Origin: Candidatus Bipolaricaulota bacterium
GTDB taxonomy: Bacteria; Bipolaricaulota; Bipolaricaulia; RBG-16-55-9; DRXL01
Assembly: GCA_030550495.1 (NCBI GenBank)
Contig: JAUQPG010000001.1
Location: 44,512-108,511 of the forward strand
DNA: 64,000 bases
Direction: 5' to 3'
Of this stretch, positions 3,862 through 57,859 are shown piece by piece; within the stretch, counting starts at the first letter, position 1; each line of letters starts with the position of its first letter. The position numbers were made by a program, and so were the translations under genes. The notes beneath the pieces are model-generated. The model made no database searches, was not told where the DNA came from, and saw only the letters and a program-made list of their open reading frames with translations.

Positions 3862-3862
3862 T

Positions 3863-5528: not shown

Positions 5529-5603
5529 AAGTGTCCGGGAAACACGCTAATATGTCTTGCTATAGACTGTGAACTGGCAACTTGCAACTGAGACCTATCT
5601 CGT

Positions 5604-5678: not shown

Positions 5679-5691
5679 GAAGGGGTATCTC

Positions 5692-5961
5692 ATGAAGACG
5701 CTCAATATCCCCGTCCCTGAAGACCTGCCTGATTTGCTGAAGATGTCCGACGAAGAATTTCGTAGGGAAGCCCAACTTTTACTTGCTACTAAGCTTTATG
5801 AACTAGGCAAGCTTACCGCGGGCATGGCTGCTCGCCTCGCCGGTGTGGACAGAGTCACATTCTTGACCCTGCTCGCTCGCTACCACGCCCCAGCAATCAA
5901 CCTCACAGGCGACGAAGTAATGCGTGAAATAGAAGCAGCTCGAGGGCTTGCCACGCCATGA
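5692..5961 (+). CDS. UPF0175-family antitoxin-like protein
   Basis: 89 aa: …EEFRREAQLLLATKLYELGKLTAGMAARLAGVDRVTFLTLLARY…, the typical UPF0175 signature. Overlaps the next gene by 4 nt. Confidence 0.6.
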   Translation: MKTLNIPVPEDLPDLLKMSDEEFRREAQLLLATKLYELGKLTAGMAARLAGVDRVTFLTLLARYHAPAINLTGDEVMREIEAARGLATP

Positions 5962-6443
5962 AGCGCCGCGTCTCCAATGCTTCCCCCGCCATCTTTTTAG
6001 CCAAGCTCGACCGGCTGGAACTGTTGCGCCTTGGCGTGGATGAAGTCTTGATCCCCACAGAAGTTCTCGCGGAACTTCGTGCCAAGCAAGATGATGTCAC
6101 TCAACACTTGGAGAAGCACCTGAACACGTGGCTCAGGGAATGTCAACTTGTTCAACGAGAAGCTGCGCAACTATTGATCGACTTGGACGAAGGAGAGCGG
6201 GCAGCCATAGCTCAAGCGTTACAAGAGCAAGCGATCAGCATAGCTACTGATGATATGGCCGCACGGCGCTTGGCGCGCCGCCTTGGCCTGGAGCCCATTG
6301 GCACAGTTGGACTGCTCTTAGCAGCCAAAAAGCGCGGGATGCTCCAATCTTTGCAAGCCGAGATCGGACGACTTAAGGCCTTGGGCTTTTGGATTGCTGA
6401 TGATTTAGTACGACAAGCCTTGCATGAGGCAGGAGAAACATAA
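5958..6443 (+). CDS. DUF3368 / PIN-like putative toxin (partner of UPF0175)
   Basis: 161 aa. N-terminus (AIFLAKLDRLELLRLGVDEVLIPTEVLAEL) resembles DUF3368 PIN-like nucleic-acid-binding proteins. Translationally coupled to the upstream small gene. Confidence 0.55.
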   Translation: MKRRVSNASPAIFLAKLDRLELLRLGVDEVLIPTEVLAELRAKQDDVTQHLEKHLNTWLRECQLVQREAAQLLIDLDEGERAAIAQALQEQAISIATDDMAARRLARRLGLEPIGTVGLLLAAKKRGMLQSLQAEIGRLKALGFWIADDLVRQALHEAGET

Positions 6444-13208: not shown

Positions 13209-14162
13209 GTGATGAACACAGTTCGATCTTATCTATTTGTTATAGGGATGGTCCTTCTCGTGGGGGTGCTGACTAGCTGTGCGGGAGGAGTCAAGCCACC
13301 CGCAGCTGTGATCACAAGTCCACAAAGTGGCGCCCAGTTTACGGTAAACCAAGCTATCGAGTTCTCGGGGGTGGCGAGGGACGATGCTGGTAAGGAAGTC
13401 ACAAAAGACGTCGTCTTTGAGTGGGACTTTGGCGACGGCACAACAGAGAAGGGCCAGAAGGTCTCCCATGCGTATGGTGCGAGTGGGACGTACACGGTCA
13501 AGCTGACGGTGAAGACCCTCGCTCAAGCCAACGAAACCAGCCCCAAGCTTGAACCTAAGCAAACGGCCCAGATCGAAATCACAGTAGTGACCGCTCTCTC
13601 AGTAGCGATCTCCGCCAGCGTCACGGAAGGGCCGGCTCCCTTGGAGGTGTCGTTCACCGCGGAAGTCCAAGGCACAGCAGCGAGCTACACCTGGGACTTC
13701 GGCGATGGCTCCACAAGCTCCGAAGCCAACCCAACGCATACGTTCACAGCTGAGGGAACATACATTGTGAGGCTCGTCGTGACGGCTCCTGACGGCAGCA
13801 CAGCTTCTGCGGAGAAGACGATCACTGTTACAGCCCCCCAGCAAGCATCGCGCAACCCTTATATCATCAAGATGGTGAGCACTGCTGATGGTCGACATTT
13901 CTTCGACCCAGCAGAGTTGACGATCAAGGTCGGCGAGACAGTTCGCTGGGTGAGTGAGTGTGCCGAGGGCATAACCTGTGTATATTCAGTCCAAGCGTAT
14001 CCCGATAAGATCCCCGCAGGCGCTGAAGCCTTCAATTCAGGACTCCTCACAGAGCGGGGGCAGTCGTTTGAGTATACGTTCACTATCCCTGGAGAGTACG
14101 AATACTTCTGCTTGTCCTACGAGCCCATGGGGATGAAAGGGAAGATTATCGTGCAGCCATAA
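13209..14162 (+). CDS. Lipoprotein with two PKD-like domains and a C-terminal cupredoxin-like domain lacking canonical His ligands
   Basis: Lipobox LLVGVLTSC after RBS AAGGAGG. Two FEWDFGDGT / [12 protein letters not shown] signatures. C-terminal …[19 protein letters not shown]…[19 protein letters not shown] resembles a plastocyanin fold with Cys and Met but no His. Confidence 0.6.
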
Positions 14163-42701: not shown

Positions 42702-44789
42702 GTGGTTACCCGCGAAGTCTTCTGGAACATCTCGCCCCTTGGTGAACTGATCTTCTATCTCATCGCTCTGATCGCTGTCGTGATCTTTGCCTATGGTATC
42801 TATAGTCACGTGCGCCGCATCCTCCAGGGCAAGAGGGTTTCTTTCACTGTACGCCCGTTATTAGCCAAACTGAGCGCAGCGATAGCGAGCATCGCGGCCA
42901 ATAGAACTATTCTGCGCCATGACGCCCCTGCCGGCATGATGCACTTTTTAATCATGTGGGGCTTCATTGTGCTCTTCATCGGCACGGTCATCGTCACGAT
43001 TGAGTACGATCTGTTTCAAAAGATTTTGGGAATGGAGCACGGCTTTTGGGTCGGCTCGTTCTTCTTGGGGTACGAAGTGATCTTGGACACGCTGGGCGTG
43101 CTCTTTCTCATCGGGTTGATCTGGGCGCTGATACGGCGTTATGGGCTCAGGCCGCCGCAGCTGACGTGGAAGCCGTTAGATTTGGCACTGCCCCTGTGGC
43201 TGTTGTTCATCGGGATCACGGGCTTTCTCGTCGAGGGCTTGCGCCTGGCGGCGACGGCGGCAGAATTAGGGTACGATCCGCGCTGGTCGTGGGCGGGCTT
43301 TCTCGTCTCACAGTGGGTGCAGACTGCTTCCGTTGGGACATTGCGCGCATGGCATTTGGCTCTGTGGTGGATGCATGGGCTTTTAGCGTTGGGCTGGATC
43401 GCGTATCTGCCCTATGCACCGAAAGTAATGCACATTCTTTCAGCTGGGGTCAATCTCTTCTTCCAAGATATGCGTCCGCGCGGACGTTTAGAACTGTTAG
43501 ATGTCGAGGGCGCATTCGAGCGCAATGAAGTCTTGGGCTTTCAGACCCTGAAGGACTTAACGCGCAAAGACTTTTTAGATTTAGCGAGCTGCACCGAGTG
43601 CGGGCGCTGCGAAGCGAACTGTCCCGCGCATCTATCGGGGAAGATCCTCTCACCGCGCGAGATTATTTTAGAGTTACGCACCCACGCAAATGAAGAGTTT
43701 CCTGCATTTGGCAGGCCCAAAGAGCATAAACAGATCATTGGGTACTCGATCAAGCCTGAGGAGATCTGGGCGTGCACAACATGCATGGCCTGTGTCGAAG
43801 TCTGTCCGGTCTTCATCGATCCCTTGAATAAAATTATAGAGCTGCGTCGCAACGAAGTGATGATCCAAGACAAGTACCCTAAGGGGTTCACCGACGTTTT
43901 CAAGGGAATGGATGGGCGCGGCAACCCTTGGGACATGCCCGCGTCTGAACGCTTAGCGTGGATAAAGGGCCTCGACGTACCTATCGTTTCGGCATTAGCT
44001 GCGTCCAACCCCAGTCCAGATTTTGAGTATCTCTTCTTCGTTGGTTGTGCCGCGTCGTTCGATCCCCGGACGCAGAAGATCGCCCGCAGCGTCGTGAAGA
44101 TCCTACAGCACGCTCAGATTAAATTTGCCGTGCTCGGCGAGGAAGAGGGCTGCACCGGCGATCCTGCCCGCCGCATCGGCCATGAATATATCTTTCAGAT
44201 CCTCGCGAAGCAGAACATCGAGATTTTTAACAATTATAACGTCAAGAAGATCTTGACGATCTGCCCGCACTGCTTCAATACTCTCAAGAACGAATATCCT
44301 GCGCTGGGCGGGCAGTACGAAGTCGTCCATCATACGCAGCTCATCGAGCAATTACTGAGAGACGGACGGCTCCAGCTCACCCAAGAGATCCCGGCGACGA
44401 TTACGTATCACGATTCGTGCTATCTGGGGCGCTACAATCGTATCTTCGACGCACCGAGGGCTATCTTACAGAAGATTCCAGGTGTGAAGCTCGTGGAGAT
44501 GGAGCGGCATCGCGAGCGCGGGATGTGCTGCGGCGCGGGTGGCGGGCTGATGTGGCTTGAAGAAGAACCCGGCAAGCGCGTCAACGAACTCAGAGTCCAG
44601 CAAGCGCAAGCTGCGCTTGACGTTCATCTTCGCCGGCCAGCGGCCGGCGAAGCCGTACGGTCTAGGCGAAGCCTGGTGGCGAGCGCCTGTCCCTTCTGCA
44701 TGATCATGCTCGAAGATGGGATTAAGTCAAAGAACGCCGAGTTTGAGAACAAAGATATTGCAGAATTGGTCGCGGAGGCGCTGGGTTAG
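42702..44789 (+). CDS. Membrane-anchored HdrD/DsrK/GlpC-like Fe-S oxidoreductase (N-terminal ~5-TMS His-containing domain, 2x[4Fe-4S], two CCG domains)
   Basis: CTECGRCEANCP…CTTCMACVEVCP ferredoxin motifs. CCG-type Cys clusters (…FFVGCAAS…ILTICPHC… and …YHDSCYLGRYN…GMCCGAGGG…). N-terminal 220 aa hydrophobic with conserved His. Confidence 0.65.
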   Translation: MVTREVFWNISPLGELIFYLIALIAVVIFAYGIYSHVRRILQGKRVSFTVRPLLAKLSAAIASIAANRTILRHDAPAGMMHFLIMWGFIVLFIGTVIVTIEYDLFQKILGMEHGFWVGSFFLGYEVILDTLGVLFLIGLIWALIRRYGLRPPQLTWKPLDLALPLWLLFIGITGFLVEGLRLAATAAELGYDPRWSWAGFLVSQWVQTASVGTLRAWHLALWWMHGLLALGWIAYLPYAPKVMHILSAGVNLFFQDMRPRGRLELLDVEGAFERNEVLGFQTLKDLTRKDFLDLASCTECGRCEANCPAHLSGKILSPREIILELRTHANEEFPAFGRPKEHKQIIGYSIKPEEIWACTTCMACVEVCPVFIDPLNKIIELRRNEVMIQDKYPKGFTDVFKGMDGRGNPWDMPASERLAWIKGLDVPIVSALAASNPSPDFEYLFFVGCAASFDPRTQKIARSVVKILQHAQIKFAVLGEEEGCTGDPARRIGHEYIFQILAKQNIEIFNNYNVKKILTICPHCFNTLKNEYPALGGQYEVVHHTQLIEQLLRDGRLQLTQEIPATITYHDSCYLGRYNRIFDAPRAILQKIPGVKLVEMERHRERGMCCGAGGGLMWLEEEPGKRVNELRVQQAQAALDVHLRRPAAGEAVRSRRSLVASACPFCMIMLEDGIKSKNAEFENKDIAELVAEALG

Positions 44790-47173
44790 ATCCACACTCC
44801 TGGGATCGTCCGCCCGCAATTGGGGCAGTGCCCATCGCGAAGTCTGTTTTGTAGAATCGCAAACCCATAACGCTCGATGAGCAGCGCCCCACACCCTGGA
44901 CAGTATGTGTTCTCATAGCGCCCGGTCATGCCAGGGAGATTGCCCGTGTAGACGAAGTGCAGCCCCGCGTCGTAGCCGATCTGCGCCGCACGGATGAGCG
45001 TCTCTGCCGGAGTATTGTCCGAATCGGTCATCTTGTAGTCTTTATGAAACGCTGTGACGTGCCATGGGATATCCGGGGAGATCGAGACTAAAAACTTCGC
45101 GATCTGTCTTAGCTCGTCGTCGGAATCGTTGAAGCCCGGAACGACAAGCGTCACGATCTCCAGCCAAAAGCCCAGCTCGTGCACCATCGCAATGCCGTCG
45201 AGGACTTTCGATAAGACCGCTCCCAGCACACGATAATTTTTATCTTGAAAAGACTTTAGGTCTATCTTGTAGCAATCGAGATGCGGGCGCAGATACTGTA
45301 AAACTTCACGGGTCGCGTTGCCGTTGGAGACATAGCCCGTGAGCAACCCGAGCTTTTTGGCTTCTTTGAAGACTGCTACGGCCCACTCTGAGGTGATCAA
45401 GGGCTCGTTATATGAGCTGATGACGGCGCGCGCGCCGTAGCGCTGAGCTAGACTGACAAGCTCTTCTGGCGTGACGTCGTGAGGAAGTGCGCCGGCGCTT
45501 GTGTCGCGCAAGGTCTGCGAGATCTCCCAGTTTTGGCAGTTTTTCACAAGGCAGAAACCCGCTAGATAGCTGTGAGTTGTGTCGTCTATCTCTAGGTTAT
45601 AAACCGGCCCCTGATATGGTTCACGGCATATAGAGCGGATTGGAACCAGATAATAATCAGACGTCTCGCGATAGCGCCGCGGGACGGTCTTGTCCTTGTA
45701 CCAGACGATAGTATATTGCTCCGCGGCCTGGTACACGTGCCGATCCTCAATTTGCTTTGTCTGTGGCTGTACATTGATATAGAGTGAGGGAAGATTCCCT
45801 AGTTGGAGGACAAGCCATGCGACTCCATAAGCCAGAGCACGGGATTTCGTCGTGACCGTTATCTTGCCGTTTTCGTAGCAATGCCCATCTCCGTGGGTAT
45901 AAGCTTCCAGAAAGGCTTGGATAATTGACGGCGGAGCCTTAAAGATGACCTCTGGAACTCGCTTTTCCTGCGACTTCGCGCCGCAGAGCCGCTCAAAGAG
46001 CCAAGCTACTGATGCTTTGGTGACCTCCACGGCGAGGGTGGTGCGACGGCGAACGCGTCGAGCTGTCACGTCGAAGAGTTCTTGGAGCAGGGTACAGATC
46101 TCGTTAGCTAGTCTGTGTTCTTGCGGCCCAAGGGCGAAGATGAGTGTGCGGCTGTTAGGGCGCCCCTTCTCGAGGACTACGCAGCCTTCGGCGCAATAAT
46201 ACCCGAGGAGTCGAGCGAGGCGTTCCTCCACGGGGAGATAGAGAGGGACTCCAGGTCTATGCTCTTTCAAGAAGCGAACTCGGCCGCCTTCTATTACGAG
46301 GCGCTGCCTGCGCTCTTCTTGCCACAGCCCGCGATAGACTTTACTGCGCACGTGCCGTATGTAGGATGGGTCCTTACCTAAAGCTTGTCCCAGTTCTCGT
46401 GAGCTTACTCCTTCCTGGGTAGCGACCATGAGCCATTCGACTTGATGCGGCGCCAATTTGTGAGGGATCTTATAGGAGGGGTGCAACTCTTCTAAGAGAG
46501 CGGACACGTCCAACGTTACTGATGTGGAGCAGGTAAAGCGCTTTGGGATGACTAAGAAATGGTGGGGTGTGAGTTCTTCAGCTCTTACGATCTCGATAGG
46601 GCCCCCTTCAGGGTTCGTGGTGGCGTAGAGACGATGGTCGGGAGTGCAGCGAAGCGCTGGGAGGTAATAAGGCTTAATAGTGATCAGCTCGCCTTCATAG
46701 TAATGCTTGAAGGCGGCCTGCACAGGGCGAAGCTCGCCAGCCTCCGTGACCACCTGGAGCTGGGGACGTGAAGCTTCTCCGTCGGGGAGCATTAGTCTCT
46801 CTTCTCCCAAACAGAAAATCTCTTCAATAGAGAGGACTCCTCGCTCGGTCGTCACAGGCGTTTCTGGGGAGAAGCAGTATGGGCAATGCAGATCGCATCC
46901 GAGCATCCCAAATGTGAGTGTGCGTGCGCCAGGCAACACGTGATAGAACGGCTTTTTCTCGATGGGGTCCAACCCCAACGAGCTGACATACCCCCAGGGC
47001 ACGTAGAGTTTTCCGTCTCTATTGAAGCGCACCTGGCAGATACCCCGTTTCCCCTCGAAGATCACGCAGCGATGAGCGCACGCATAGCAGCGCACTCTCT
47101 TATCGTCGAGCTTCTCGTAGAGCTCGCCCTCGCGCGTACGCGCATCGAGCAGCTCTGCAAGCGTCGCGATCAT
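44786..47173 (-). CDS. AmmeMemoRadiSam-system radical SAM enzyme interrupted by a 446-aa intein
   Basis: Extein is …RCYACAHRCVI…GICQVRFN…GCDLHCPY|…|CQNWEISQT… plus the C-terminal half (…LPGMTGRYENTYCPGCGALLIE…). Start ATG 47173 with upstream GAGGGG. Confidence 0.75.
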   Translation of the reverse strand: MIATLAELLDARTREGELYEKLDDKRVRCYACAHRCVIFEGKRGICQVRFNRDGKLYVPWGYVSSLGLDPIEKKPFYHVLPGARTLTFGMLGCDLHCPYCFSPETPVTTERGVLSIEEIFCLGEERLMLPDGEASRPQLQVVTEAGELRPVQAAFKHYYEGELITIKPYYLPALRCTPDHRLYATTNPEGGPIEIVRAEELTPHHFLVIPKRFTCSTSVTLDVSALLEELHPSYKIPHKLAPHQVEWLMVATQEGVSSRELGQALGKDPSYIRHVRSKVYRGLWQEERRQRLVIEGGRVRFLKEHRPGVPLYLPVEERLARLLGYYCAEGCVVLEKGRPNSRTLIFALGPQEHRLANEICTLLQELFDVTARRVRRRTTLAVEVTKASVAWLFERLCGAKSQEKRVPEVIFKAPPSIIQAFLEAYTHGDGHCYENGKITVTTKSRALAYGVAWLVLQLGNLPSLYINVQPQTKQIEDRHVYQAAEQYTIVWYKDKTVPRRYRETSDYYLVPIRSICREPYQGPVYNLEIDDTTHSYLAGFCLVKNCQNWEISQTLRDTSAGALPHDVTPEELVSLAQRYGARAVISSYNEPLITSEWAVAVFKEAKKLGLLTGYVSNGNATREVLQYLRPHLDCYKIDLKSFQDKNYRVLGAVLSKVLDGIAMVHELGFWLEIVTLVVPGFNDSDDELRQIAKFLVSISPDIPWHVTAFHKDYKMTDSDNTPAETLIRAAQIGYDAGLHFVYTGNLPGMTGRYENTYCPGCGALLIERYGFAILQNRLRDGHCPNCGRTIPGVWI
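45539..46876 (-). other. Intein with LAGLIDADG homing-endonuclease domain, inserted in the CxxxCxxC motif of the radical SAM gene
   Basis: Begins Cys1 (CFSPETPVTTERG = block A). Block B TPDH. Two LAGLIDADG-like motifs (LARLLGYYCAEGCV; IIQAFLEAYTHGDGH). Blocks F/G VYNLEIDDTTHSYLAGFCLVKN, then extein Cys+1. Confidence 0.7.
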
Positions 47174-47177
47174 CGAG

Positions 47178-47984
47178 TTACCCCTCATAGAACGCGTAGC
47201 ACCCATAGCCCACAACTCGGAATCTATCCCCCGCTGTATCCCCGGAATTGCGATAGTCCAAGAGCTTCGCTTTCCATCCGTGATCACGAGCAATCTGCAT
47301 CAGTGTCAGGATCGCGGTCTTCCCGCAGGCTTCGACGCGCTCCTCCATCAACGCAAAATCGAAATTTTCAATGGCTCGGTGGGCTAGAGCGTCGCGCCCT
47401 ACGGCTTCCTCGTAGGGATAATAGTGGCTCAGATCCGAGCTGACAATAATGAGATCTATGTCTTCTAGATATGGCGCGAGTGTTCGTGCTAGATTGCGAT
47501 AGTCGCATTCGCCCGTCAAGATGGGGAAGATCTCACAGTTGGGAAGCACAGTCTGCACGAAGGGGAGCTGCACTTCTAAAGAATGCTCTGGAGCATGAGC
47601 GTTGGGATTATTCTGGAGATCGCCGCGCTCGAGGGCGCGAGCGATCAAGCCTTTGGCGCACTGTACCAAGCCGAGCGGGGTCTGCCAGGCGTCACAGTCT
47701 ACAATTGCCGCGCCGACGAAGTAGACGTAGTGTGCCGGGCCAAGAAGAAGCACTCTTAACTGAGAACTGTCAAACTTGGAACTGTAAACTGTTTTGTAGC
47801 CCGTTGCCGCCACCGGCCCAGAGTAGACATACCCAGCGTGGGGCACGATCAGCCCGCGCAGTCTGCCTCCAAGTGTCTTGGGCTGTGCTTGAGCAAGCAA
47901 AGTCTCGACGGTCTTGCGCAAGCGCTCCGAGCTTGCAGGATAGAAGCTTCCTGCGACGGCTGCAGGCCGAATGCGCTCCATCAC
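47178..47984 (-). CDS. Memo-like protein (AmmeMemoRadiSam system protein B)
   Basis: MMERIRPAAVAGSFYPA…IVPHAGYVYSGPVAA… typical of the MEMO1/DUF52 family. Stop lies 4 nt upstream of the radical SAM start. Confidence 0.75.
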   Translation of the reverse strand: MMERIRPAAVAGSFYPASSERLRKTVETLLAQAQPKTLGGRLRGLIVPHAGYVYSGPVAATGYKTVYSSKFDSSQLRVLLLGPAHYVYFVGAAIVDCDAWQTPLGLVQCAKGLIARALERGDLQNNPNAHAPEHSLEVQLPFVQTVLPNCEIFPILTGECDYRNLARTLAPYLEDIDLIIVSSDLSHYYPYEEAVGRDALAHRAIENFDFALMEERVEACGKTAILTLMQIARDHGWKAKLLDYRNSGDTAGDRFRVVGYGCYAFYEG

Positions 47985-49509: not shown

Positions 49510-49941
49510 TCAGCGTTGGCCAAGCAATTCTGTGAACGTGAAAACGGAGCCGTGGACCTGTCGTGCGAGCTGTTCCGCACGCTCGCGATCGCCCAAAGCG
49601 ACAATCCCGTGGCCCATCGGCGTGTGTAGCTCCGAACTCTTGACGAAGAACGCGCTGTCAGCCTTGAGCCACGCTTCGCCTTCGTAATCGTGTACCCAGA
49701 AGACGGCAACATCTTCTCGATGGGCTTTAGAGAAGGCGAGCATATCCCCAATGTCGTCGAAGGAGCGCCACGTGCCCTCACGAGTGAGATACGCGGCGGC
49801 AAAACGCGCCTCGCTGATGATCATCCCGCACTGAGCACACCTGTCGCGCCCGTAGCGAATCTGTGGAGGGCGCTCCCGCGACGCTTGACATCCTGAGAGG
49901 CTCACAGCAACGAGCGCGACCAAAAACGCCCTGCGGGTCAT
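49510..49941 (-). CDS. nosL: NosL copper-chaperone lipoprotein
   Basis: Lipobox LSGC then …DRCAQCGMIISE…, the NosL CxxCxM signature. Confidence 0.7.
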   Translation of the reverse strand: MTRRAFLVALVAVSLSGCQASRERPPQIRYGRDRCAQCGMIISEARFAAAYLTREGTWRSFDDIGDMLAFSKAHREDVAVFWVHDYEGEAWLKADSAFFVKSSELHTPMGHGIVALGDRERAEQLARQVHGSVFTFTELLGQR

Positions 49942-50762
49942 TCCAGCGCCCCCCGATGACGAAAGATCACGACACTCAGCGCAAGAGCTGACACTGTCCA
50001 TCCCACAAGCAGCGCGAGCAAGAAGGGCACCAGCGCATCGCCAAACGCGCGCAGCGCATACAGCCCTGCCGGGCCTAAGATCTCTAAATCTCCCTGAACG
50101 ATCAAGACTGCCAAGAGCTTAAAGCTCTGTAACGGGTTGAGCAGCGCCAGACTGAAGAGCTGTCCCACGCTGAGCCGGAGCACGAGCGCTGTGCCCATGA
50201 CGCCAAGATCGCTCAAGAACACTAAGAGAAGCCAGACGAAGAGCGCTGTGCCCATCGCGGTGGCTCCCTTCCGCGCCAGCGCCGAGATCAAAAACCCCAC
50301 AGCCAAACTCAGCAAGACCAGCAATACCGTCAGGCCCCACAGCGCAAGATAGAGATCGCTCTGAACGACCCCCCCGTGCCACGCGATCAGAAGCCCGCTT
50401 ATGCCAAAGCCTGCGCTCAGCGCTGCTATCAAAGCGAAAGCCAAACCGAGATACTTCCCGATGAGCACTTCGGCGGCGCTGACGGGTTGCGCCAAGAGAA
50501 AGAGCAGCGTGCCGCGCTCGCGCTCCCCAGCGATGCTCAATGCCCCCAGGGTCAGCCCCATCAGCGGGACGATCAAGAGGATCAGATTGATAAGACTGGC
50601 TCCGGTGCGCCCAAAGCCAGCGACCCCATAACTTCCCAGAGCGCTCAGTCCCAACCACATCAATGCCGACGCTAACGCGACAAAGACGAGCGCATAGAGC
50701 CACAGCCATCTATTGCGCCGCGCCTCTCGAACCTCTCTGTGAGCAAAAAGCAGCGTGTTCAT
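49938..50762 (-). CDS. nosY: ABC-2 type permease NosY
   Basis: Six-TMS ABC-2 permease immediately downstream of the nosD-nosF ORF, with the ABC-2 hallmark …SIAGERERGTLLFLLAQPV…. Confidence 0.7.
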   Translation of the reverse strand: MNTLLFAHREVREARRNRWLWLYALVFVALASALMWLGLSALGSYGVAGFGRTGASLINLILLIVPLMGLTLGALSIAGERERGTLLFLLAQPVSAAEVLIGKYLGLAFALIAALSAGFGISGLLIAWHGGVVQSDLYLALWGLTVLLVLLSLAVGFLISALARKGATAMGTALFVWLLLVFLSDLGVMGTALVLRLSVGQLFSLALLNPLQSFKLLAVLIVQGDLEILGPAGLYALRAFGDALVPFLLALLVGWTVSALALSVVIFRHRGALE

Positions 50763-52849
50763 AAGAGCTCAGAGACCCCTCTCCCGTCAATGTGCTCGAT
50801 CTGCACCAACCGCCCTTGTTCGAGCACCAACACCCGGTCAGCAACAGCGAGGATCTCATTATGGTGATGCGACGAGAAGATCAGCGTCTTTCCGGAGCTT
50901 TTGAGTTCGTTCAGCAGCTGCAAAAACTCTTTGCGGGTCTGGGTGTCGAGGCTCGCCGTTGGCTCGTCCAGGAGCAAGATCGGCGGATCGCCTAAGAGCG
51001 CTATAGCGAGCGCTACGCGCTGCTTCATCCCCCCAGAGAGCGTGCCAATTCTTTTATGCAAGAATTTGTCAAGCCCTAAACGCTGTATCACCGGGGGAAC
51101 AGCTTCTCGCAAGACGCCCTTCAGCCGAGCAAAGAAGAGAAGAGCTTCGCCGACGGTGAAGTCGTCAGGAATCTGAATCTGTTGGGGCACGAAGCCCAGC
51201 AAGCGTCGCACTTCTTTCCCTTGCCGGTGTGGATCGAGCCCGTCAAGCGCGATGGCTCCGTCATAGCGCAGCAATCCCAACAGACAGTGCAAGACCGTAG
51301 ATTTGCCTGCGCCGTTGGGCCCCCACAGCGCGAGGGCTTCGCCTGCCCTCACCGTGAACGAGAGATTCTCAACGGCTATAACATGGCCGAAGCGCTTGGT
51401 GAGGCCGCGCACGACGATCTCCCCCTCACCCCCAGCCCCTCTCCCCTTTGAGGGAGAGGGGAGCAAGGGGTGAGGGATAAGCCAGCGCACAACGCCCCAT
51501 CCGAAGCCGATGATTAGACTGATCCCCACAAACAACAACCATCCTGTCGCTGCTTGTGGCATCCCACTCCGTAGCGATGCTGCGCGCGCGAATTCCAAGG
51601 TCGGCAGTACCGGCGTCATCAGCGGCTGCGGGTCTATAAGCTTTGGCTGCGGCTGGAAGATAGGCAAGGCCCGCGCCGCAAACTCCAACGCTTGGATCGC
51701 CGGGCTGTAGAGAAAGAGCTTCATCTGGGGGTGTCGGTCTAGTAAGTCCTCGACAAGCCGTTCAGACTTGTAGGGCAGATCGCCTAAGCCGTCGCCGTCG
51801 GCGTCATAGCCGAGATAATCCCCCCAAAAGTTTCTCTCCCAGAGGTTGCCCACCAGCTGGCCCCCGCCAGCGATCCCCACGTGCTCAAAGTTCTCGATGA
51901 AGCTATTTTCAGTGAAGAGATCCCCGCGCACCGACGGCAGCATCATCACGGCCGTCTCGTTATAGGCGAAGAGATTCTTGCGAAAGACGACCGGCGTCTC
52001 TGGAGCTGACGGCGAGTTGTCGACAAAGACCCCGACGCTGTTGTCGGCGATCACGTTCTCGGCGACAGAAACGCTATCAGAGTCTTTGAGGCCGATGCCG
52101 TAGCCGCTGGGACCGCGATGCCCTAGAGAGAGATTCTTTGCTATCGTCACGCCCCGGCTGTACATAGCGTAGATACCCACAAAGTTTTTGAGCAGCGCGT
52201 TCTCTTCTATCCGTATCTCTTGAGCATACATGAGATGGATGCCGTAGCGCCCGCCTACAAAGCGATTCCCCCACACCGACACATTCTGCGAGTACCAGAT
52301 GATAGCATCGCGGGCGTTATACGTTTCGTTCTCTTGAATGAGCACGTCGGAGCTGTACCATACGCGAATTGCGTCGCCGCGCTCGGCCTCAGAGACGTCC
52401 AACCCAACGATCTTGTTACGACGGATGACGCTCCCCGGCGCGTCCTTGAGATAGATCCCAAAGAGCACATCAGAGAGCGTATTCTCTTCGATGATCGCAC
52501 GCGGAGCTTCAACTAAGATCGCTGAGTCTTCGTGGGCCAGGCTGCGCCCAGAATTTTTGAGCACAAAGCCCTTGAGCATGACATCTGGGGCAGTGACGCG
52601 CACGATAGTGCCCTGCCCCTGGCCGTCGAGCACAGCTCCCTCACTGATTAGAGTCAGGGGTTTATCAATGACGATTGGGCCGGTGTAGACCCCTTGAGGC
52701 ACGCGCAGGGTCGCTCCTGACGGCGCAGAAGCGATCAAGGCTTGGAGGGCCCTCATCCCTGGCCCCTCTCCCGTGGGGGAGCCACGGGAGAGGGGAGCTA
52801 AGAGAGCTATGCTCACAAGCAGTATGCCTAACGCTCTAATCAGCGTCAC
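50759..52849 (-). CDS. nosD: NosD (periplasmic beta-helix) fused in one ORF to NosF (ABC ATPase); linker encoded by a palindromic repeat
   Basis: Signal peptide; parallel-beta-helix repeats (…NKIVGLDVSEAERGDAIRVWYSS…). TM segment, repeat-encoded …PHPLLPSPSKGRGAGGEGE…, then Walker A GPNGAGKST, LSGGMKQRVALA, Walker B LLLDEPTASLD. Confidence 0.7.
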   Translation of the reverse strand: MTLIRALGILLVSIALLAPLSRGSPTGEGPGMRALQALIASAPSGATLRVPQGVYTGPIVIDKPLTLISEGAVLDGQGQGTIVRVTAPDVMLKGFVLKNSGRSLAHEDSAILVEAPRAIIEENTLSDVLFGIYLKDAPGSVIRRNKIVGLDVSEAERGDAIRVWYSSDVLIQENETYNARDAIIWYSQNVSVWGNRFVGGRYGIHLMYAQEIRIEENALLKNFVGIYAMYSRGVTIAKNLSLGHRGPSGYGIGLKDSDSVSVAENVIADNSVGVFVDNSPSAPETPVVFRKNLFAYNETAVMMLPSVRGDLFTENSFIENFEHVGIAGGGQLVGNLWERNFWGDYLGYDADGDGLGDLPYKSERLVEDLLDRHPQMKLFLYSPAIQALEFAARALPIFQPQPKLIDPQPLMTPVLPTLEFARAASLRSGMPQAATGWLLFVGISLIIGFGWGVVRWLIPHPLLPSPSKGRGAGGEGEIVVRGLTKRFGHVIAVENLSFTVRAGEALALWGPNGAGKSTVLHCLLGLLRYDGAIALDGLDPHRQGKEVRRLLGFVPQQIQIPDDFTVGEALLFFARLKGVLREAVPPVIQRLGLDKFLHKRIGTLSGGMKQRVALAIALLGDPPILLLDEPTASLDTQTRKEFLQLLNELKSSGKTLIFSSHHHNEILAVADRVLVLEQGRLVQIEHIDGRGVSELL
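51423..51476. repeat. Repeat copy (d): CCCTCACCCC-cag-CCCCTCTCCCC-tttg-AGGGAGAGGGG-agcaa-GGGGTGAGGG at the NosD/NosF junction
   Basis: Nested 10-bp outer and 11-bp inner inverted repeats read directly; in-frame within ORF 50759..52849. Confidence 0.6.
52748..52795. repeat. Repeat copy (e): GGCCCTCAtCCC…CCCCTCTCCCGTGG-gggag-CCACGGGAGAGGGG; right outer arm absent
   Basis: Inner hairpin identical to copy (a). Encodes …LSRGSPTGEGPG… immediately after the NosD signal peptide. Confidence 0.5.
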
Positions 52850-53498
52850 GCTGTGCCTCCAGCGAGATTACGATCGGACCGATACGAATGGGAATCTTTT
52901 GTTCTATGGCTTGACGGATCACGCGACGGTAGTGCAGGCCGAGAGCCACTAAGAGCGCCGCTGCGACAGCAAGCCAGAAGCCGGCTTGCAGCTCGGCGAC
53001 CGTCTTGAACTGCCCCACCGTGCCTACGCCAAAGACTGGGGGAGTAAACGGCGGGATGCGCAGCGGCGCGTTGGGATCAAGCTCATGCCCATACCGATAG
53101 AGCCAGAAGTACATATCTCCCAAAAATATAGCAGGGAAGAGCATAGCGGGGAGAGCGAGCACCGCCGCCCAGCGCCGCCGCGTGTACGCGAGCGTACTGG
53201 CGAGCAACGCTGCCGCCCCAATCGCCAACGGTGCCAAGAACTTCTCGACCTGCGCGGCCTGGTTGAGCTTCTTCATCCCGACGTAATGATTGAGATTGTC
53301 TACTTCGGTGACGTCCCCTGATAGATGTGTCACGTAGACGGCGACGCGCAGCCCTCCTGGATATTGCGGCGCCATGAGCGTCAGGCTCCAATACGGGAAG
53401 AGCACCGAAAGCAACACAAGCCACGACGCGATGGTGAAAAGGGCGCGGGGAAACCGAAAGGGATCCTCCGCAAGCCATGCTCTCAATCGCTCGCTCAT
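52836..53498 (-). CDS. Polytopic membrane protein at the nosB position of clade II nos clusters (NosB-like)
   Basis: 220 aa, ~5 hydrophobic segments, no recognisable motif. Call rests on synteny between nosZ and nosD. Confidence 0.4.
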   Translation of the reverse strand: MSERLRAWLAEDPFRFPRALFTIASWLVLLSVLFPYWSLTLMAPQYPGGLRVAVYVTHLSGDVTEVDNLNHYVGMKKLNQAAQVEKFLAPLAIGAAALLASTLAYTRRRWAAVLALPAMLFPAIFLGDMYFWLYRYGHELDPNAPLRIPPFTPPVFGVGTVGQFKTVAELQAGFWLAVAAALLVALGLHYRRVIRQAIEQKIPIRIGPIVISLEAQRDAD

Positions 53499-53502
53499 AG
53501 CG

Positions 53503-55500
53503 CTAGGGCTCCACTAAGAAGTACCCGACCATCTCTAAGTGTAGCGCTGAGCAGAACTCAGTGCAGTAGAAGACGAACGTGCCGCTCTGGTCTGCGTCGA
53601 ACTCGACTGTTCCTGTCTCGCCCGGCTCTAAGCTCATATGAATATTGTATCCGCCCAGAGCAAACGCGTGAGAAGCATCGCGCGCCCGCTCGATGTTCGT
53701 GATGTGCCAGATCACGTGATCGCCCTTCTTGACAGTGATGCGCTCGGGATAGAAGTGGCTGCGCACCGCGGTCATCCAAATCTCTACAACGCGACGCCCG
53801 TTCTCATAGCGCACCTCGACGCGCTCGCGCCCAGGCTCAGTCGCATTGGGGTCCTTAGCCATCTTCACTGCGTTCCAGCCGACCTCGGGATACACTTCAA
53901 AAGGCTTGAGCTTGTCAACCTTGATCATCTGGGCGTAGTGGGGCTCGCCAATACCGATGGGCATATCATAGAGCAGTTGCATCTTCTCGCCACTGATGTC
54001 TATGAGCTGGAAGTTCTGCGGGTGGAGCGGCCCCACAGGCACGAAGCGATCGACGGACCATTTGTTGAGGGCGACAACATACTTGCCGTCAGGAGAGACC
54101 GTGTCCCCTTCCGCCGCAGCGATGTGCCCAATATTATAGTGCACCGGGAGCTTCTCGACGAGCTTCCACGGCTCTTTCCCGTCTGTACGATACGGCCCGC
54201 CTAACGTCCATTTTGCCACCGCGCTGTCCAAGAACATCGACGTATACGCGAAGCCCTTGTCGTCGTAGACCGTGTGCAACGGCCCCAAGCCGAGCTCGAC
54301 TTGCGCTTCGACGACGTCTTCAAGTCTTAAGATGGGCACGCCGTAGGCATCGCGCTCAGTTGGCCCTGCAGCAATTGCTTTCTGAATCTTCTCAAACGAA
54401 TAGACCGTCACGTGGGGATCGAGCTTGCCCCCAACCACGATATACTCCCCTCCAGGGGTGACGTCCACGCCGTGCGGGCTTTTGGGCTCCGGAGCGAAGA
54501 AGAGCACTCCAGACTGGGCCGCTGTCTCTAAGCGAATGACGCGCATCCCGCTGATTGTTTCGTATTGCCCGTTCTGGAGAAGCTCTTCAGCTTTCTTCCA
54601 ATTGATGATGTGCAGAAAGTCCATCTCGTTCTTGGCTGTGCCGGCTTCGAAGGGGGGCTTGCCTTCTTCAATGCCGCCGGTGGCCATCTCGGAATTGAAC
54701 GAGTTGCAGAAGACCCAGCCCTCAGAGACTTTCTTTCCCGCATCACACAGGTCTTGCCAATAGGGGGGCAGCTCGATCTGGAACGATCGCGCGGGATCGA
54801 CGCGCCCCTGAGCCCGATCAAATGCCCAGAACGTGATCACTCCCCGGTATTTCTCTCTGTACTCGTCAAGTGAAGCGTACTGCCAGCCCAGAGGCACGGC
54901 GTATTGCGGGCCTTCGACGACGTACTCAGTGTTAGGGGTGACAAACCCGCCGCCGTGATCGCTAATAGCGTTTGGATTCTTGAGAATCTGCTTGGTCTCG
55001 AAATCTCTCAGGTCAATCACAGCAAGTCGGGCGTTGGCCTTGTCATTAATAAAGAGAAATTGCCCGTCGTACTCGCCGTTGGTCTCGGAGAGCGCCGGGT
55101 GGTGCGTATCGCCCCAAAGAATAGGCTTGCCGTTAGCTGCGCCGCCGGCTAAGACTTCCATCGTCTCTTTTTCGCCGTAGCCGTAGCCCTGCCACGGTTC
55201 GGGCGTGAAGACGCCGATGACTTTCAGCAAGCGCATAGACGGAATCCCGATGACCAGCACTTGCCCAGAATGCCCCCCTGACGCAAAGAGAATATATTCG
55301 TCATATTTGCCTGAGGGGACATACGTCTTGAGGGCTGCTGTGATGTCATCGTGGGTCAGGCCGCGCGCTTGGGCGATCTGCAAGACTTCTGTGGGCAGGC
55401 CTGCTTGGGGTGTCTGAGCTGTCTTGGGTGCTTGCCCGCCACAGCCGACGACAAAGAGACTGAGAACGACAAGGACGACAATCGTCAGAGAATTTTTCAT
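53503..55500 (-). CDS. nosZ: Nitrous-oxide reductase NosZ, clade II (Sec/lipoprotein signal, CuA cupredoxin tail)
   Basis: Signal peptide MKNSLTIVVLVVLSLFVVGCGG (lipobox, no twin-Arg). Seven-bladed propeller body. C-terminal CuA motif HAFALGGYNIHMSLEPGETGTVEFDADQSGTFVFYCTEFCSALHLEM. Confidence 0.85.
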   Translation of the reverse strand: MKNSLTIVVLVVLSLFVVGCGGQAPKTAQTPQAGLPTEVLQIAQARGLTHDDITAALKTYVPSGKYDEYILFASGGHSGQVLVIGIPSMRLLKVIGVFTPEPWQGYGYGEKETMEVLAGGAANGKPILWGDTHHPALSETNGEYDGQFLFINDKANARLAVIDLRDFETKQILKNPNAISDHGGGFVTPNTEYVVEGPQYAVPLGWQYASLDEYREKYRGVITFWAFDRAQGRVDPARSFQIELPPYWQDLCDAGKKVSEGWVFCNSFNSEMATGGIEEGKPPFEAGTAKNEMDFLHIINWKKAEELLQNGQYETISGMRVIRLETAAQSGVLFFAPEPKSPHGVDVTPGGEYIVVGGKLDPHVTVYSFEKIQKAIAAGPTERDAYGVPILRLEDVVEAQVELGLGPLHTVYDDKGFAYTSMFLDSAVAKWTLGGPYRTDGKEPWKLVEKLPVHYNIGHIAAAEGDTVSPDGKYVVALNKWSVDRFVPVGPLHPQNFQLIDISGEKMQLLYDMPIGIGEPHYAQMIKVDKLKPFEVYPEVGWNAVKMAKDPNATEPGRERVEVRYENGRRVVEIWMTAVRSHFYPERITVKKGDHVIWHITNIERARDASHAFALGGYNIHMSLEPGETGTVEFDADQSGTFVFYCTEFCSALHLEMVGYFLVEP

Positions 55501-55502
55501 AG

Positions 55503-55955
55503 CTATCTCCTCCTTCGAGTTTTCTGCTGAGTTGTTTCACGCAGCGCGCGAGCGAGATCCTCCAGGGTCGTCCCCTGGAGATAGTTTCTGATCTGGTCGC
55601 GCACCGGCTTCCAGCGAGAGTGATGCGGGCAGGGATGCTGATCGCTGCAGCCGGCCAGCCCGATCACGCAGCTTTCCAAGGCGGCTGTGCCGTCAATCGC
55701 TTGAACGATCTCATAGAGCGTGATCTGCGAAGCCGGGCGAGCCAGGGCAAAACCCCCGTGCGGCCCGCGCGTCGAAGCGAGAATCCCTGCGCGCGTCAGC
55801 GTCTGAAAGACTTTTCCGAGAAAGTGCTGGGGAATCTTCTCGCGTTCAGCAAGCTCCTTCACCGGGCTAGGCTGTCCTGATTCTGATTGGCTGAGCGCCA
55901 GCTGGGTCAGCGCCCGGATCGCATATCCTGCCGCATTGGAGTAGAGCATCGTCAT
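55503..55955 (-). CDS. Rrf2-family (NsrR/IscR-like) transcriptional regulator with three-Cys cluster site; first gene of the nos operon
   Basis: N-terminal wHTH (…GYAIRALTQLA…PVKELAEREKIPQHFLGKVFQTL…) and C-x6-C-x5-C (ESCVIGLAGCSDQHPCP). Stop lies 2 nt before the nosZ start. Confidence 0.75.
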   Translation of the reverse strand: MTMLYSNAAGYAIRALTQLALSQSESGQPSPVKELAEREKIPQHFLGKVFQTLTRAGILASTRGPHGGFALARPASQITLYEIVQAIDGTAALESCVIGLAGCSDQHPCPHHSRWKPVRDQIRNYLQGTTLEDLARALRETTQQKTRRRR

Positions 55956-55987
55956 AATTCAGATATTCGGACCTTGATATCTGAATT
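55956..55987 (-). promoter_or_regulatory. Perfect 11-10-11 inverted repeat AATTCAGATAT-N10-ATATCTGAATT abutting the Rrf2 start codon and overlapping a TATAAT
   Basis: Read directly. On the minus strand: …gggaTATAATtcagatat-caaggtccga-atatctgaatt-ATG. Confidence 0.4.
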
Positions 55988-56051
55988 ATATCCCACAACA
56001 CAGAGGGTGCAATGATCCGCGTCATGACACGAGCTGACTCAGATCATTTTT

Positions 56052-56909
56052 CTAGTTCTTTGTTATCTGGATTTGAAAGAGCTTGGGCCAATATTTGCCC
56101 GTGACGAAGAGCCGGTCACCTTGGGCATCGTAGGCAATGCCGTTGAGCACGTCGACGCGGGCATGACGATCTTCAGGTTTCAAAAGTCCTGTTAGGTCGA
56201 TCCAACCCACGACGCGCCCCGTCTCCGGCTGAATGATCGCGATGCGATCCGTCTGCCAGACATTGGCGTAGATCAGCCCGTTAATATATTCTAATTCGTT
56301 GAGGCGCACGACTGGCCCCTTGTCGTCACGGACTTCTATGCGCCCGATCTCTTGCAGCGTCTCTGGGTCCCACACAAAGAGCGTCGCCGAGCCGTCGCTC
56401 ATAATGAGACGGGTGCCGTCGTGAGTGATCCCCCAGCCCTCCGTGGGATAAGAGAACTCTTTCAGCAATGTGAACGTCTCGCGATCGTAGACGAACCCCT
56501 TGCGATGCTGCCACGTCAGCTGAATGATCTTGTCGCCCCAGATAGTGATCCCTTCGCCGAAGATCTCATCGGGGAGCCGATGGATCTGCAAGACCTTCCC
56601 GGTCTCTAGCTCGACCTTGCGCAGGGAAGATTCCCCCCACATCCCCGTCCCTTCGTACAGAATATTGTCCTTGTAATAGACCAACCCTTGAGTAAACGCA
56701 CCAGGATCATGGGGAAAAGTCTTCAGCACTTTATAGCCGTAGACGGGGATCTCTTCCGAAATTTTCACGGCGCTGACAGCGCCCTCGTGCGTCCCAGGCA
56801 AGTATGTATAAAAGAGCAGTGCCCCGGCGAGCGCCAACAAGATGATCCCTACGATGACGAAGATCCGGTTCATGCGCATCCTTTCCATATTATTGAACGT
56901 TGAACGCAA
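56052..56909 (-). CDS. Glutaminyl-peptide cyclotransferase (beta-propeller glutamine cyclotransferase family)
   Basis: N-terminal TM anchor, then …YKVLKTFPHDPGAFTQGLVY…LYEGTGMWGESSLRKVELETGKV…GEGITIWGDKIIQLTWQHRKGFVYD… typical of the plant/bacterial glutamine cyclotransferase family. Confidence 0.65.
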   Translation of the reverse strand: MRSTFNNMERMRMNRIFVIVGIILLALAGALLFYTYLPGTHEGAVSAVKISEEIPVYGYKVLKTFPHDPGAFTQGLVYYKDNILYEGTGMWGESSLRKVELETGKVLQIHRLPDEIFGEGITIWGDKIIQLTWQHRKGFVYDRETFTLLKEFSYPTEGWGITHDGTRLIMSDGSATLFVWDPETLQEIGRIEVRDDKGPVVRLNELEYINGLIYANVWQTDRIAIIQPETGRVVGWIDLTGLLKPEDRHARVDVLNGIAYDAQGDRLFVTGKYWPKLFQIQITKN

Positions 56910-56923
56910 AACTCGGAACTCTT

Positions 56924-57262
56924 TTAGAATCCTCGCCCTACGGTATCAACGTGGACTATGTTCTCACAGACCACTACAGAACCCGTTGAGGCGACTTGAT
57001 GATCGATGCGAGTGCCATCAGAACGGGTGACGGTAACCTTGGCCACGCGCCCTCCCTTGGGGATGTATGCCACACAGCTGCCGCGCATCTCGCTCTTCCA
57101 GTCTGAAGGAGACTCGAATCTGATCTCTACAAATGGGCGCACCACTAGTTCATTGGGAATCTGCGGTTGGCTCTGCGCCGTCTGCCACAAAAACTGTACC
57201 CCGATCACCAATGCCAACAAAAACGCCACCGAACCCACGACGAACATCAGCTCGCGCTTCAT
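56924..57262 (-). CDS. Hypothetical small membrane-anchored protein
   Basis: 112 aa with an N-terminal TM helix and no recognised domain. Positioned between the glutamine cyclotransferase and rsmD. Confidence 0.3.
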   Translation of the reverse strand: MKRELMFVVGSVAFLLALVIGVQFLWQTAQSQPQIPNELVVRPFVEIRFESPSDWKSEMRGSCVAYIPKGGRVAKVTVTRSDGTRIDHQVASTGSVVVCENIVHVDTVGRGF

Positions 57263-57289
57263 TCTCTATCTCCCCCTTTCGCAAGTATT

Positions 57290-57859
57290 TTACTTGAAAG
57301 CCCCCCAGCGGTAAAACCAGAGACGATTATCCCCATAGGTGCGCACATCGCAAGACCTTAAAAGACCGTATTCTCTCTGGATTTGCTCTTTCTTAAAGAT
57401 CTCGGTCACGACGAGCGCTCCTGAGGCGAGTATGGGGTGGGCTGCAAGCTGAATCAAAGTCTTATGAGCAAGCTCCTTCCCATAGGGCGGGCCAATGAAG
57501 ACTATATCAAACTGCTCCCCATGACGGTGAAGGAACTCAATCGCTCTAAGCGCATCCAACCGATAGAGCCTTGTCTGTGCAGAGAGCCCGAGATTCTCTA
57601 TATTCTTTCGGATGATCTGACACGCTTCATCAGAGACATCGACAAAGACGCACGAACGCGCGCCGCGGCTGAGGGCTTCCAGCCCAATACTCCCCGTGCC
57701 GGCAAAGAGATCGAGAAAGCGTGCATCTACGACGGAGTCGCCGAGAATATCAAAGAGCGCGGCGCGCACCGCCTCGCGCATCGGCCGCAAGAACCTCTTT
57801 ATCCTTGGCGTTGGTTCGATGAGAGGACGTCCGCTCAACCGCCCGCCAATGATGCGCAT
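57290..57859 (-). CDS. rsmD: 16S rRNA (guanine966-N2)-methyltransferase
   Basis: MRIIGGRLSGRPL…RPMREAVRAALFDIL…LDLFAGTGSIGLEALSRGA…FIGPPY. Confidence 0.8.
   Translation of the reverse strand: MRIIGGRLSGRPLIEPTPRIKRFLRPMREAVRAALFDILGDSVVDARFLDLFAGTGSIGLEALSRGARSCVFVDVSDEACQIIRKNIENLGLSAQTRLYRLDALRAIEFLHRHGEQFDIVFIGPPYGKELAHKTLIQLAAHPILASGALVVTEIFKKEQIQREYGLLRSCDVRTYGDNRLWFYRWGAFK

Follow-up and report, generated by a model that had tools for sequence, protein, structure and literature searches.

No biological sink for nitrous oxide (N2O) is known other than nitrous oxide reductase (NosZ), and it is the clade II forms of this enzyme which are dominant in many environments. Considered here is a clade II nos operon found within a 64,000-nucleotide (nt) stretch of contig JAUQPG010000001.1 (assembly GCA_030550495.1, positions 44,512 to 108,511 of the forward strand), a stretch that in its entirety is described as the window. 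The operon consists of, in order, a gene for a regulator of the Rrf2 family, nosZ, nosB, a fusion of nosD with nosF, nosY, and nosL. With a probability of roughly 0.8, this is a functional clade II N2O-reductase operon of an uncultured hot-spring bacterium, one which is controlled by its Rrf2 protein and which employs an electron carrier encoded elsewhere in the genome.

Among described systems, the cluster of Wolinella succinogenes and other Campylobacterota is ordered nosZ-B-G-C1-C2-H-D-F-Y-L (Hein et al. 2017, as cited in passages of PMC11409646 and PMC9697520), with nos regulation in Campylobacterota being ascribed, in PMC11539149, to Crp/Fnr-type proteins rather than to Rrf2. The present cluster resembles that one in having a homologous NosB (36% identity to that of Sulfurimonas) and Sec-type NosZ export, but differs in being without the NosG/H quinol dehydrogenase module, without NosC1/C2, and without a cytochrome domain on NosZ or NosB. 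More similar are the clade II clusters of Chloroflexota, Planctomycetota, and Thermoanaerobaculia, which display the same nosZ-nosB-nosD-nosF-nosY-nosL order and which likewise are without nosR and nosX. The NosZ of the window is 60-73% identical to Chloroflexota and Planctomycetota enzymes, and in both nosB directly follows nosZ. Unlike most clusters of that type, however, the operon considered here has an Rrf2 gene as its first cistron, encodes NosD and NosF as a single polypeptide, and has no flanking cytochrome c gene.

An association of Rrf2 with nos has been known since 2018, but is unstudied. That is, Calderoli et al. (2018, PMC6264515) found that clade II nos scaffolds of subantarctic sediment metagenomes are enriched in Rrf2-family regulators, Rrf2 there also being found beside clade II nosZ. 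The Rrf2 queries in that work were from strains of Flavobacteriales (Bacteroidetes), and the scaffolds carried cytochrome c genes as well. Operator, ligand analysis, and co-transcription are undescribed there.

For comparison, 80 genome loci with NosB homologues were surveyed, with annotation by BLASTP versus the window's proteins. The order nosZ-nosB-nosD-nosF-nosY-nosL is the rule among these loci. The Z-B-D-F-Y-L type of clade II cluster is common, that is, and what is worth recording in the present case is the Rrf2 protein together with its candidate operator, the NosD::NosF fusion, and the lack of a linked cytochrome. None of the three, i.e., Rrf2, the fusion, or the missing cytochrome, is unique to the window, and the Rrf2 link, as noted, is already in print.

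The operon, its NosZ, and the supply of electrons

The six open reading frames (ORFs) all are found on the minus strand, between positions 55955 and 49510 of the window (aa, amino acids):

55503-55955, minus strand: Rrf2 regulator gene, 150 aa (148 aa if begun at the second ATG, 55949)
53503-55500, minus strand: nosZ, 665 aa, clade II (Sec-dependent) NosZ, predicted lipoprotein (Cys20)
52836-53498, minus strand: nosB, 220 aa, modeled with four transmembrane helices and a beta-sheet ectodomain
50759-52849, minus strand: nosD::nosF fusion, 696 aa
49938-50762, minus strand: nosY, 274 aa, ABC-2 type permease
49510-49941, minus strand: nosL, 143 aa, copper chaperone, predicted lipoprotein (lipobox LSGC)

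Packing is tight, the successive junctions being gaps of 2 and 4 nt and then overlaps of 14, 4, and 4 nt. At the first of these the Rrf2 gene ends in TAG (55505-55503), two letters ('CT') separate this stop from the nosZ ATG at 55500, and the nosZ Shine-Dalgarno sequence, GGAGGAG, sits within the 3' end of the Rrf2 gene. Neither a terminator nor a promoter would fit into the 2 nt that part Rrf2 from nosZ. No intrinsic terminators are seen either between the operon's genes or past nosL, and terminator-like matches across the region (9, versus 6.5 +/- 3.0 in shuffled sequence) are not in excess. At the operon's other end, the longest nosL ORF extends to 50001; gene callers on four independent contigs choose instead the 143-aa start, which results in the 4-nt overlap with nosY.

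A sequence-only reading, made by a model from the letters of this DNA, had proposed just such a compact clade II operon, with the Rrf2 stop 2 nt ahead of the nosZ start. The proposal is borne out gene for gene by ORFs, Pfam, and NCBIfam, and the 2-nt distance by direct reading. What that reading had named as able to overturn it, a terminator belonging to Rrf2 and a separate promoter for nosZ, is not seen given the narrowness of the gap and the shuffled-sequence level of terminator-like sites. The operon is confirmed as real and intact, with family assignments that are far beyond chance.

Purifying selection is clear on all six genes. Compared with a close relative (locus L007), proteins are 80-93% identical and synonymous divergence (dS) of the six genes is 0.5-1.3, with ratios of nonsynonymous to synonymous divergence (dN/dS) of 0.23 for Rrf2, 0.04 for NosZ, 0.07 for NosB, 0.22 for NosDF, 0.12 for NosY, and 0.20 for NosL. 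The G+C content of the cluster, 0.57-0.59, is near that of the rest of the window, so that recent transfer is not indicated. Sequences closely related to the nos proteins carry the labels 'Candidatus Bipolaricaulia bacterium' and 'Acetithermum autotrophicum', with one metagenome-assembled genome (MAG) labelled 'Candidatus Fraserbacteria', followed next by a Thermoflexus MAG. An identical NosZ protein is present on 8 public contigs (JGI 3300009585, 3300000865, and 3300022541, an ENA assembly, and Logan runs included), which, as read from record names and from the thermophile labels of nearest relatives, come from hot-spring samples. Possession of nosZ is common among MAGs of thermophiles; one study of a bioreactor, for example, counts it in 19 of 41 (PMC5877337).

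NosZ is assigned to clade II by profile hidden Markov model. The protein scores 869.7 bits with the Sec-dependent model (TIGR04246), which has a cut-off of 625, but only 428.7 bits with the model for twin-arginine translocation (TAT), TIGR04244, with the same cut-off of 625, and only 215.9 bits with the clade III L-NosZ model, for which the cut-off is 700. Its N-terminus, MKNSLTIVVLVVLSLFVVGC, is without a twin arginine and ends in a lipobox with Cys20, so NosZ, with its signal peptide as judged by eye and by hydropathy scan, probably is Sec-exported and lipid-anchored at that cysteine. A lipobox-like motif is found as well in about 25 of 67 related NosZ proteins. The Sec/lipoprotein signal and clade II membership thus are as the sequence-only reading had put them, and neither a clade I affiliation nor a cryptic TAT motif, which it had named as contrary outcomes, is observed. 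Also complete is the set of seven histidines of the CuZ site, for which that reading had suggested a scan: H133, H134, H182, H343, H409, H459, and H521. So too are the CuA ligands, H611, C646, C650, H654, and M657. Both sets were located by motif search and by alignment to the solved enzyme 1QNI, using what we take to be the ligand numbering of the latter. NosZ, that is, looks like a working enzyme, with N2O reduction predicted. It would be exported in an unfolded state via Sec, and then tethered by lipid at Cys20.

Separately, at three of the surveyed loci (L047, L056, and L057; e.g., L056:1325-3709 and 3475-6333) there are tandem NosZ-like ORFs which are 31-49% identical to the NosZ of the window. 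These belong to MAGs labelled Polynucleobacter, Deltaproteobacteria, and Bradymonadales, and have nosB at the far end of the cluster.

A cytochrome c gene is found directly beside nos in 55 of the 80 related loci. In Chloroflexota it follows nosL and encodes a mono-haem protein; in Planctomycetota it precedes nosZ and encodes a di-haem one. Across ORFs of at least 60 aa in the window, by contrast, the haem-binding motif CxxCH is absent except from one 102-aa ORF (57006-57314, plus strand), which lies antisense over a longer ORF (56924-57262) and probably is not a gene. Precomputed Pfam lists, which cover most of the window, include no NosR-, NosG-, or NosH-type proteins and no nitrite or nitric-oxide reductases, but instead cell-division, cofactor, and housekeeping genes. 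By the CxxCH scan and these lists, then, the window is without nosR, cytochrome, and nosG/H, as had been supposed. A predicted lipoprotein with two PKD domains and a C-terminal cupredoxin-like domain (Pfam Copper-bind), encoded at 13209-14162 on the plus strand, was entertained as electron donor and rejected, as canonical type-1 copper histidine ligands are not evident.

With no donor gene in the window, the electron carrier must be encoded elsewhere in the genome, and it is from such a carrier that NosZ would receive its electrons. A different perspective is that the cluster is not respiratory at all, NosZ serving instead as a low-flux scavenger or detoxifier of N2O with a non-dedicated donor, or else being silent for want of a carrier. 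Bipolaricaulota generally are described as anaerobic acetogens, which would be in keeping with that perspective, as also would be the absence of NosG, NosH, and NosR and of the cytochrome c gene that stands beside nos in most relatives. Strong purifying selection across the six genes, to a dN/dS of 0.04 with NosZ, nevertheless argues against a silent relic, and 64 kb is a limited view of a genome in which donors may be encoded elsewhere. A non-respiratory cluster therefore is viewed as rather unlikely, and a functional, Rrf2-controlled operon is preferred.

The Rrf2 regulator and the palindrome ahead of its gene

Membership of the first gene's product in the Rrf2 family is secure (PF02082, E 3.7e-34 over residues 6-136, with a 132-position model; TIGR00738, 125 bits, cut-off 73.3). 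The protein possesses the C-x6-C-x5-C site that the sequence-only reading had described, as C96-x6-C103-x5-C109, with two histidines, H111 and H112, just beyond. Among solved structures the best match is Escherichia coli IscR (E 3e-16), in alignment with which C96, C103, C109, and H112 correspond to IscR positions 92, 98, 104, and 107, though with C96 offset by one residue (x6 here versus x5). C92, C98, C104, and H107 of IscR are its [2Fe-2S] ligands, and the protein considered here probably holds an Fe-S cluster on the corresponding four residues, judging from ligand pattern. Solved NsrR, on the other hand, is the weakest of its matches in the PDB (E 8e-5). Against NCBIfam equivalog models, the scores are 86.1 bits for IscR (cut-off 207.55) and 34 bits for NsrR (cut-off 182).

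The protein had been called NsrR/IscR-like, and of this description the IscR-like portion stands with respect to ligands (three cysteines plus His112), whereas the NsrR-like portion does not, with both scores far below their cut-offs. With the two E. coli proteins it shares the winged-helix Rrf2 fold, and with NsrR, additionally, the status of a small regulator tied to N-oxide metabolism. It differs from both in being linked to nos rather than to isc or to nitric oxide (NO) detoxification genes; nor are published IscR and NsrR boxes known to be related to the candidate operator sequence that is described below. On these matches, the protein is an uncharacterised Rrf2 member that has an IscR-like Cys3-His ligand set. 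Candidates for its signal are NO, O2, redox state, and Fe-S status, with NO sensing only one among these several possibilities.

Nor is the regulator usefully described as standing in place of NosR, as had been suggested. Clade II nos clusters generally lack NosR, a protein whose main role is in electron transfer and maintenance. Rrf2, that is, replaces nothing.

Within the fetched flanks, a Rrf2 homologue is present at 26 of the 80 surveyed loci (Planctomycetota, Lentisphaeria, Krumholzibacteriia, Bacteroidota, Gemmatimonadales, and others). At 5 loci such a gene directly precedes nosZ, in the same orientation, and at 12 loci it is 0.6-1.7 kb upstream, in most of the latter with a cytochrome c gene lying between. 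Two ligand patterns are seen. One, C-x6-C-x5..8-C-x2-H, is that of the window. In the other, of Planctomycetota/Phycisphaerae, the second cysteine is replaced by histidine (C..H..C-x2-H; loci L018, L019, L033, L051, L052, L062, L064, L067, L068, and others), and between Rrf2 genes of this subtype and nosZ there mostly lies a cytochrome c gene, usually a di-haem one.

A nos-specific Rrf2 subfamily was considered as well, and rejected. The four closest homologues from outside of nos loci (53-63% identity) are found in unrelated contexts: beside multicopper oxidase and CopD genes, beside hydrogenase genes, beside an ABC transporter, and beside nothing related. What has occurred is recruitment of a type of Rrf2 to nos rather than the existence of a nos-specific family. 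As a separate observation, the closest of these homologues (P0238, 63% identity) heads the multicopper oxidase and CopD cluster (L209:6001-8555), which raises the possibility that the role of this Rrf2 subfamily has to do with copper.

These contexts bear also on whether the Rrf2 protein might be a general, IscR-like Fe-S or redox housekeeping regulator that mainly controls genes found elsewhere, with some other factor governing nos. Both its best model match, at 86 bits, and its best solved relative are indeed IscR, and its closest relatives outside of nos do stand beside unrelated genes. That match nevertheless is far under the equivalog cut-off, and no isc or suf genes are found within 10 kb of the nos cluster. 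Further, the 2-nt gap and the Rrf2-nosZ order are retained in all close relatives, the palindrome described below is found just once in 64 kb, and Rrf2 is present at 26 of 80 nos loci from many phyla versus a rough expectation of about 1-2% (our own estimate, which assumes a few Rrf2 genes per 4-Mb genome). A regulator mainly of genes elsewhere is, in light of the above, quite improbable. Control of the operon by its own Rrf2 protein is preferred, and what lies upstream of the Rrf2 gene is relevant to an appreciation of how that control might be exerted:

55985-55990, minus strand: -10 box TATAAT, upstream of the Rrf2 gene, as read from sequence
55955-55988, strand not assigned: perfect 12-10-12 inverted repeat, TAATTCAGATAT-N10-ATATCTGAATTA, candidate operator for a Rrf2 dimer

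The palindrome overlaps the -10 box as well as the likely transcription start, and its right arm reaches the first ATG. Its core pattern occurs once in the 64-kb window, versus 0.03 occurrences expected by chance. The 9-bp core arms, TTCAGATAT and ATATCTGAA, are identical in the window and at L006, L007, L145, and L199, with an exact match also at L106, and at all five of these loci the palindrome block precedes a Rrf2-nosZ pair, with Rrf2 proteins that are 80-94% identical. Between the -10 box and the far edge of the 9-bp core right arm just two spacer positions vary, along with, beyond that core, the outermost three bases of the right arm, while flanks have diverged beyond alignment. At L007, L145, and L199 the TATAAT is preceded by TTGACA, at a spacing of 17 nt as counted in L007 alone, and a Shine-Dalgarno sequence is found downstream of the palindrome. 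From these relatives, the true Rrf2 start probably is the second ATG, at 55949.

Self-controlling repressors classically have a repeat placed over both -10 box and transcription start, and this placement and the conservation of the palindrome suggest autorepression of the whole operon by Rrf2. Transcription would begin at a sigma-70-type promoter ahead of Rrf2 and give rise to a single transcript of about 6.4 kb, extending through nosZ, nosB, nosDF, nosY, and nosL. A Rrf2 dimer probably binds the 34-bp palindrome and, so bound, would hold down production of itself and of all of the nos machinery until its Fe-S cluster is altered by a signal.

The palindrome could alternatively function as a hairpin of the leader RNA, in attenuation or translational control, or be the site of a different DNA-binding protein. 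Its right arm does extend to the first ATG and, in relatives, it is positioned between -10 box and Shine-Dalgarno sequence, as a leader element might be. Transcription from the TATAAT would begin, though, inside of the left arm, so that a full stem could not form. The part that would be transcribed folds at -6.9 kcal/mol (z = -0.52), which is no better than shuffles, and the leader region has no match to an Rfam family. As an inverted repeat over a -10 box, beside a gene for a dimeric winged-helix regulator, also is the classic autorepressor layout, a role in RNA or for another protein appears most improbable, and a Rrf2 operator remains the preferred description.

Palindrome matches were also sought in public metagenome contigs, with at least 120 loci found, of which, among those listed, 3 adjoin Rrf2-nosZ (L106, L145, and L199). 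A wider palindrome regulon was not accepted, the other 117 listed loci being treated as putative fortuitous hits, such as an 18-base pattern would find in so large a collection; their neighbouring genes are uninspected, and their use was limited to that of footprint controls.

Several points weigh against this view of the operon. The -35 box of the window is poor, which is why a scan for consensus promoters missed this one, and the window's Rrf2 gene is without a Shine-Dalgarno sequence. The palindrome, at 34 bp, exceeds the roughly 23-29 bp of sites for characterised Rrf2 proteins. The Rrf2 subfamily, by the company that its members keep, is not nos-specific, so that the signal is unreadable from family membership. 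Lastly, the window is without a cytochrome c, a cupredoxin with intact ligands, or a quinol dehydrogenase, and the respiratory chain, as visible, is incomplete.

NosB, the NosD::NosF fusion, and NosZ maturation

The 220-aa product of the gene found 4 nt after nosZ is matched by no Pfam or NCBIfam model. By BLASTP, it is 36% identical over 169 aa (E 8e-32) to the NosB-NosC2 protein of Sulfurimonas denitrificans (ABB45043, from a published supplement). NosB family motifs, LNHY[IV]GM and YGH[NE] in the van Spanning alignment as quoted in a passage of PMC9697520, both are present, as LNHYVGM (69-75) and YGHE (136-139), and a hydropathy scan indicates four hydrophobic helices. What had been noted as a NosB-like polytopic membrane protein at the nosB position is, by this homology and these motifs, a true NosB homologue. 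An AlphaFold2 model based on 17 homologues (predicted local distance difference test, pLDDT, 88; predicted template modeling score, pTM, 0.82) has four long membrane helices, with two outside loops that form a beta-sheet. Searching the PDB with this predicted fold recovers only claudin/TARP-like four-helix topologies (E >= 1e-3, TM-score 0.35-0.5), i.e., no solved homologue and no functional lead. No conserved cysteine and no haem motif within NosB point to a redox cofactor.

The ORF following nosB encodes both NosD (TIGR04247, 390 bits, cut-off 300, residues 35-412 of the 696) and NosF (ABC_tran, E 3.8e-31, residues 494-632), with matches to Pseudomonas stutzeri NosD (7o0y_A, E 6e-41) and NosF (7o0y_B, E 3.5e-33). 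Its layout is signal peptide, NosD beta-helix (about 35-412), transmembrane helix (436-454, from a hydropathy scan), and ABC ATPase (about 478-687). The topology thereby predicted, of periplasmic beta-helix, transmembrane helix, and cytoplasmic ATPase, is a sound one. With NosY (ABC2_membrane_2, PF12679, E 2e-27; 86% identical to the NosY of L007) and NosL (PF05573, E 1.4e-15), beta-helix, ATPase, and ABC-2 permease of the NosDFY system all are encoded together, with the copper chaperone following.

The fusion is real and not rare. Clustering at 90% identity places it in a group of 13 proteins, drawn from NCBI, ENA, JGI, and Logan assemblies, of which 11 are full-length at 696 aa. Of the 67 related loci having both NosD and NosF, 19 encode the two within a single ORF. 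In 7 of those 19 NosB is fused as well, ahead of NosD::NosF. At four of the seven (L054, L063, L078, and L086) NosY remains separate, while at the other three NosY is fused behind, resulting in NosB::NosD::NosF::NosY proteins of 1232-1289 aa:

L035:10031-13729: four-part fusion ORF, Anaerolineae chromosome
L050:2085-5912: four-part fusion ORF, Armatimonadota MAG
L058:9959-13828: four-part fusion ORF, 'Bacterium HR15'

A hydrophobic helix is found by hydropathy scan at most of the fusion junctions, being below threshold at NosB-NosD of L050 and NosD-NosF of L058. Unfused NosD proteins of related loci mostly (38 of 50) end in a C-terminal membrane anchor, and loss of a single stop codon therefore suffices for fusion. 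A search of the literature, of incomplete coverage, found NosB-NosL and NosB-NosC2 fusions but no description of NosD-NosF, NosB-NosD, or NosB-NosD-NosF-NosY fusions, the novelty of which is unproven.

These larger fusions, from other phyla, together with the NosD::NosF fusion of the window, argue that NosB belongs to the NosDFY maturation machine, and NosB most likely would work as part of a NosD::NosF-NosY complex. Copper would reach NosZ outside of the cytoplasm from the lipoprotein NosL, by way of that membrane complex. The closest solved counterpart is P. stutzeri NosDFY-NosL (7o0y and related entries), to which NosD and NosF are homologous and of which NosY and NosL likewise have counterparts here. 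In the P. stutzeri structures the two are distinct polypeptides, with one NosD chain and two NosF chains per entry (NosD, 16 entries and 16 chains; NosF, 15 entries and 30 chains), whereas here a transmembrane helix joins them into one, so that their ratio can only be 1:1.

Taken jointly, it is conceivable, though doubtful as a whole, that NosB is a structural subunit of NosDFY rather than an electron-transfer protein, that each transporter possesses two NosD domains where solved structures have one, and that Rrf2 is a dedicated switch for N2O reduction acting at a 34-bp operator, all in an organism seemingly without a nos-linked cytochrome. If true, then the nos maturation machine of this subclade may differ from the Pseudomonas model.

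Neighbouring genes and significance

A convergent fumarase gene adjoins nosL at a distance of 24 nt. At the other end, 96 nt upstream of Rrf2, is a glutaminyl cyclase gene (Glu_cyclase_2; 56052-56909, minus strand) whose product has an N-terminal membrane anchor. This neighbour is retained at L145 and L199 but not at L007, and no functional link to nos is evident. Elsewhere in the window, a radical SAM protein (44786-47293, along with 47178-47984, both minus strand) is split by an intein with a LAGLIDADG endonuclease domain. Its gene adjoins one of the Memo family, as an AmmeMemoRadiSam-type pair, and a metagenome copy (L002) has been called in pieces. On the plus strand, a tRNA gene at 5604-5675 is followed, at about 5692-6443, by a toxin-antitoxin-like UPF0175/DUF3368 small pair.

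The cluster adds a thermophilic, apparently Bipolaricaulota-like lineage to the likely consumers of N2O. It also offers a series of test cases. One is how clade II nos genes are switched on, given a Rrf2 protein with IscR-like ligands along with a candidate operator. A second is what NosB does, with fusions pointing to a copper and sulfur maturation machine. A third is the identity of the electron donor to a NosZ which has no cytochrome gene attached. Answers to such questions would fill gaps, that is, while overturning no current views.

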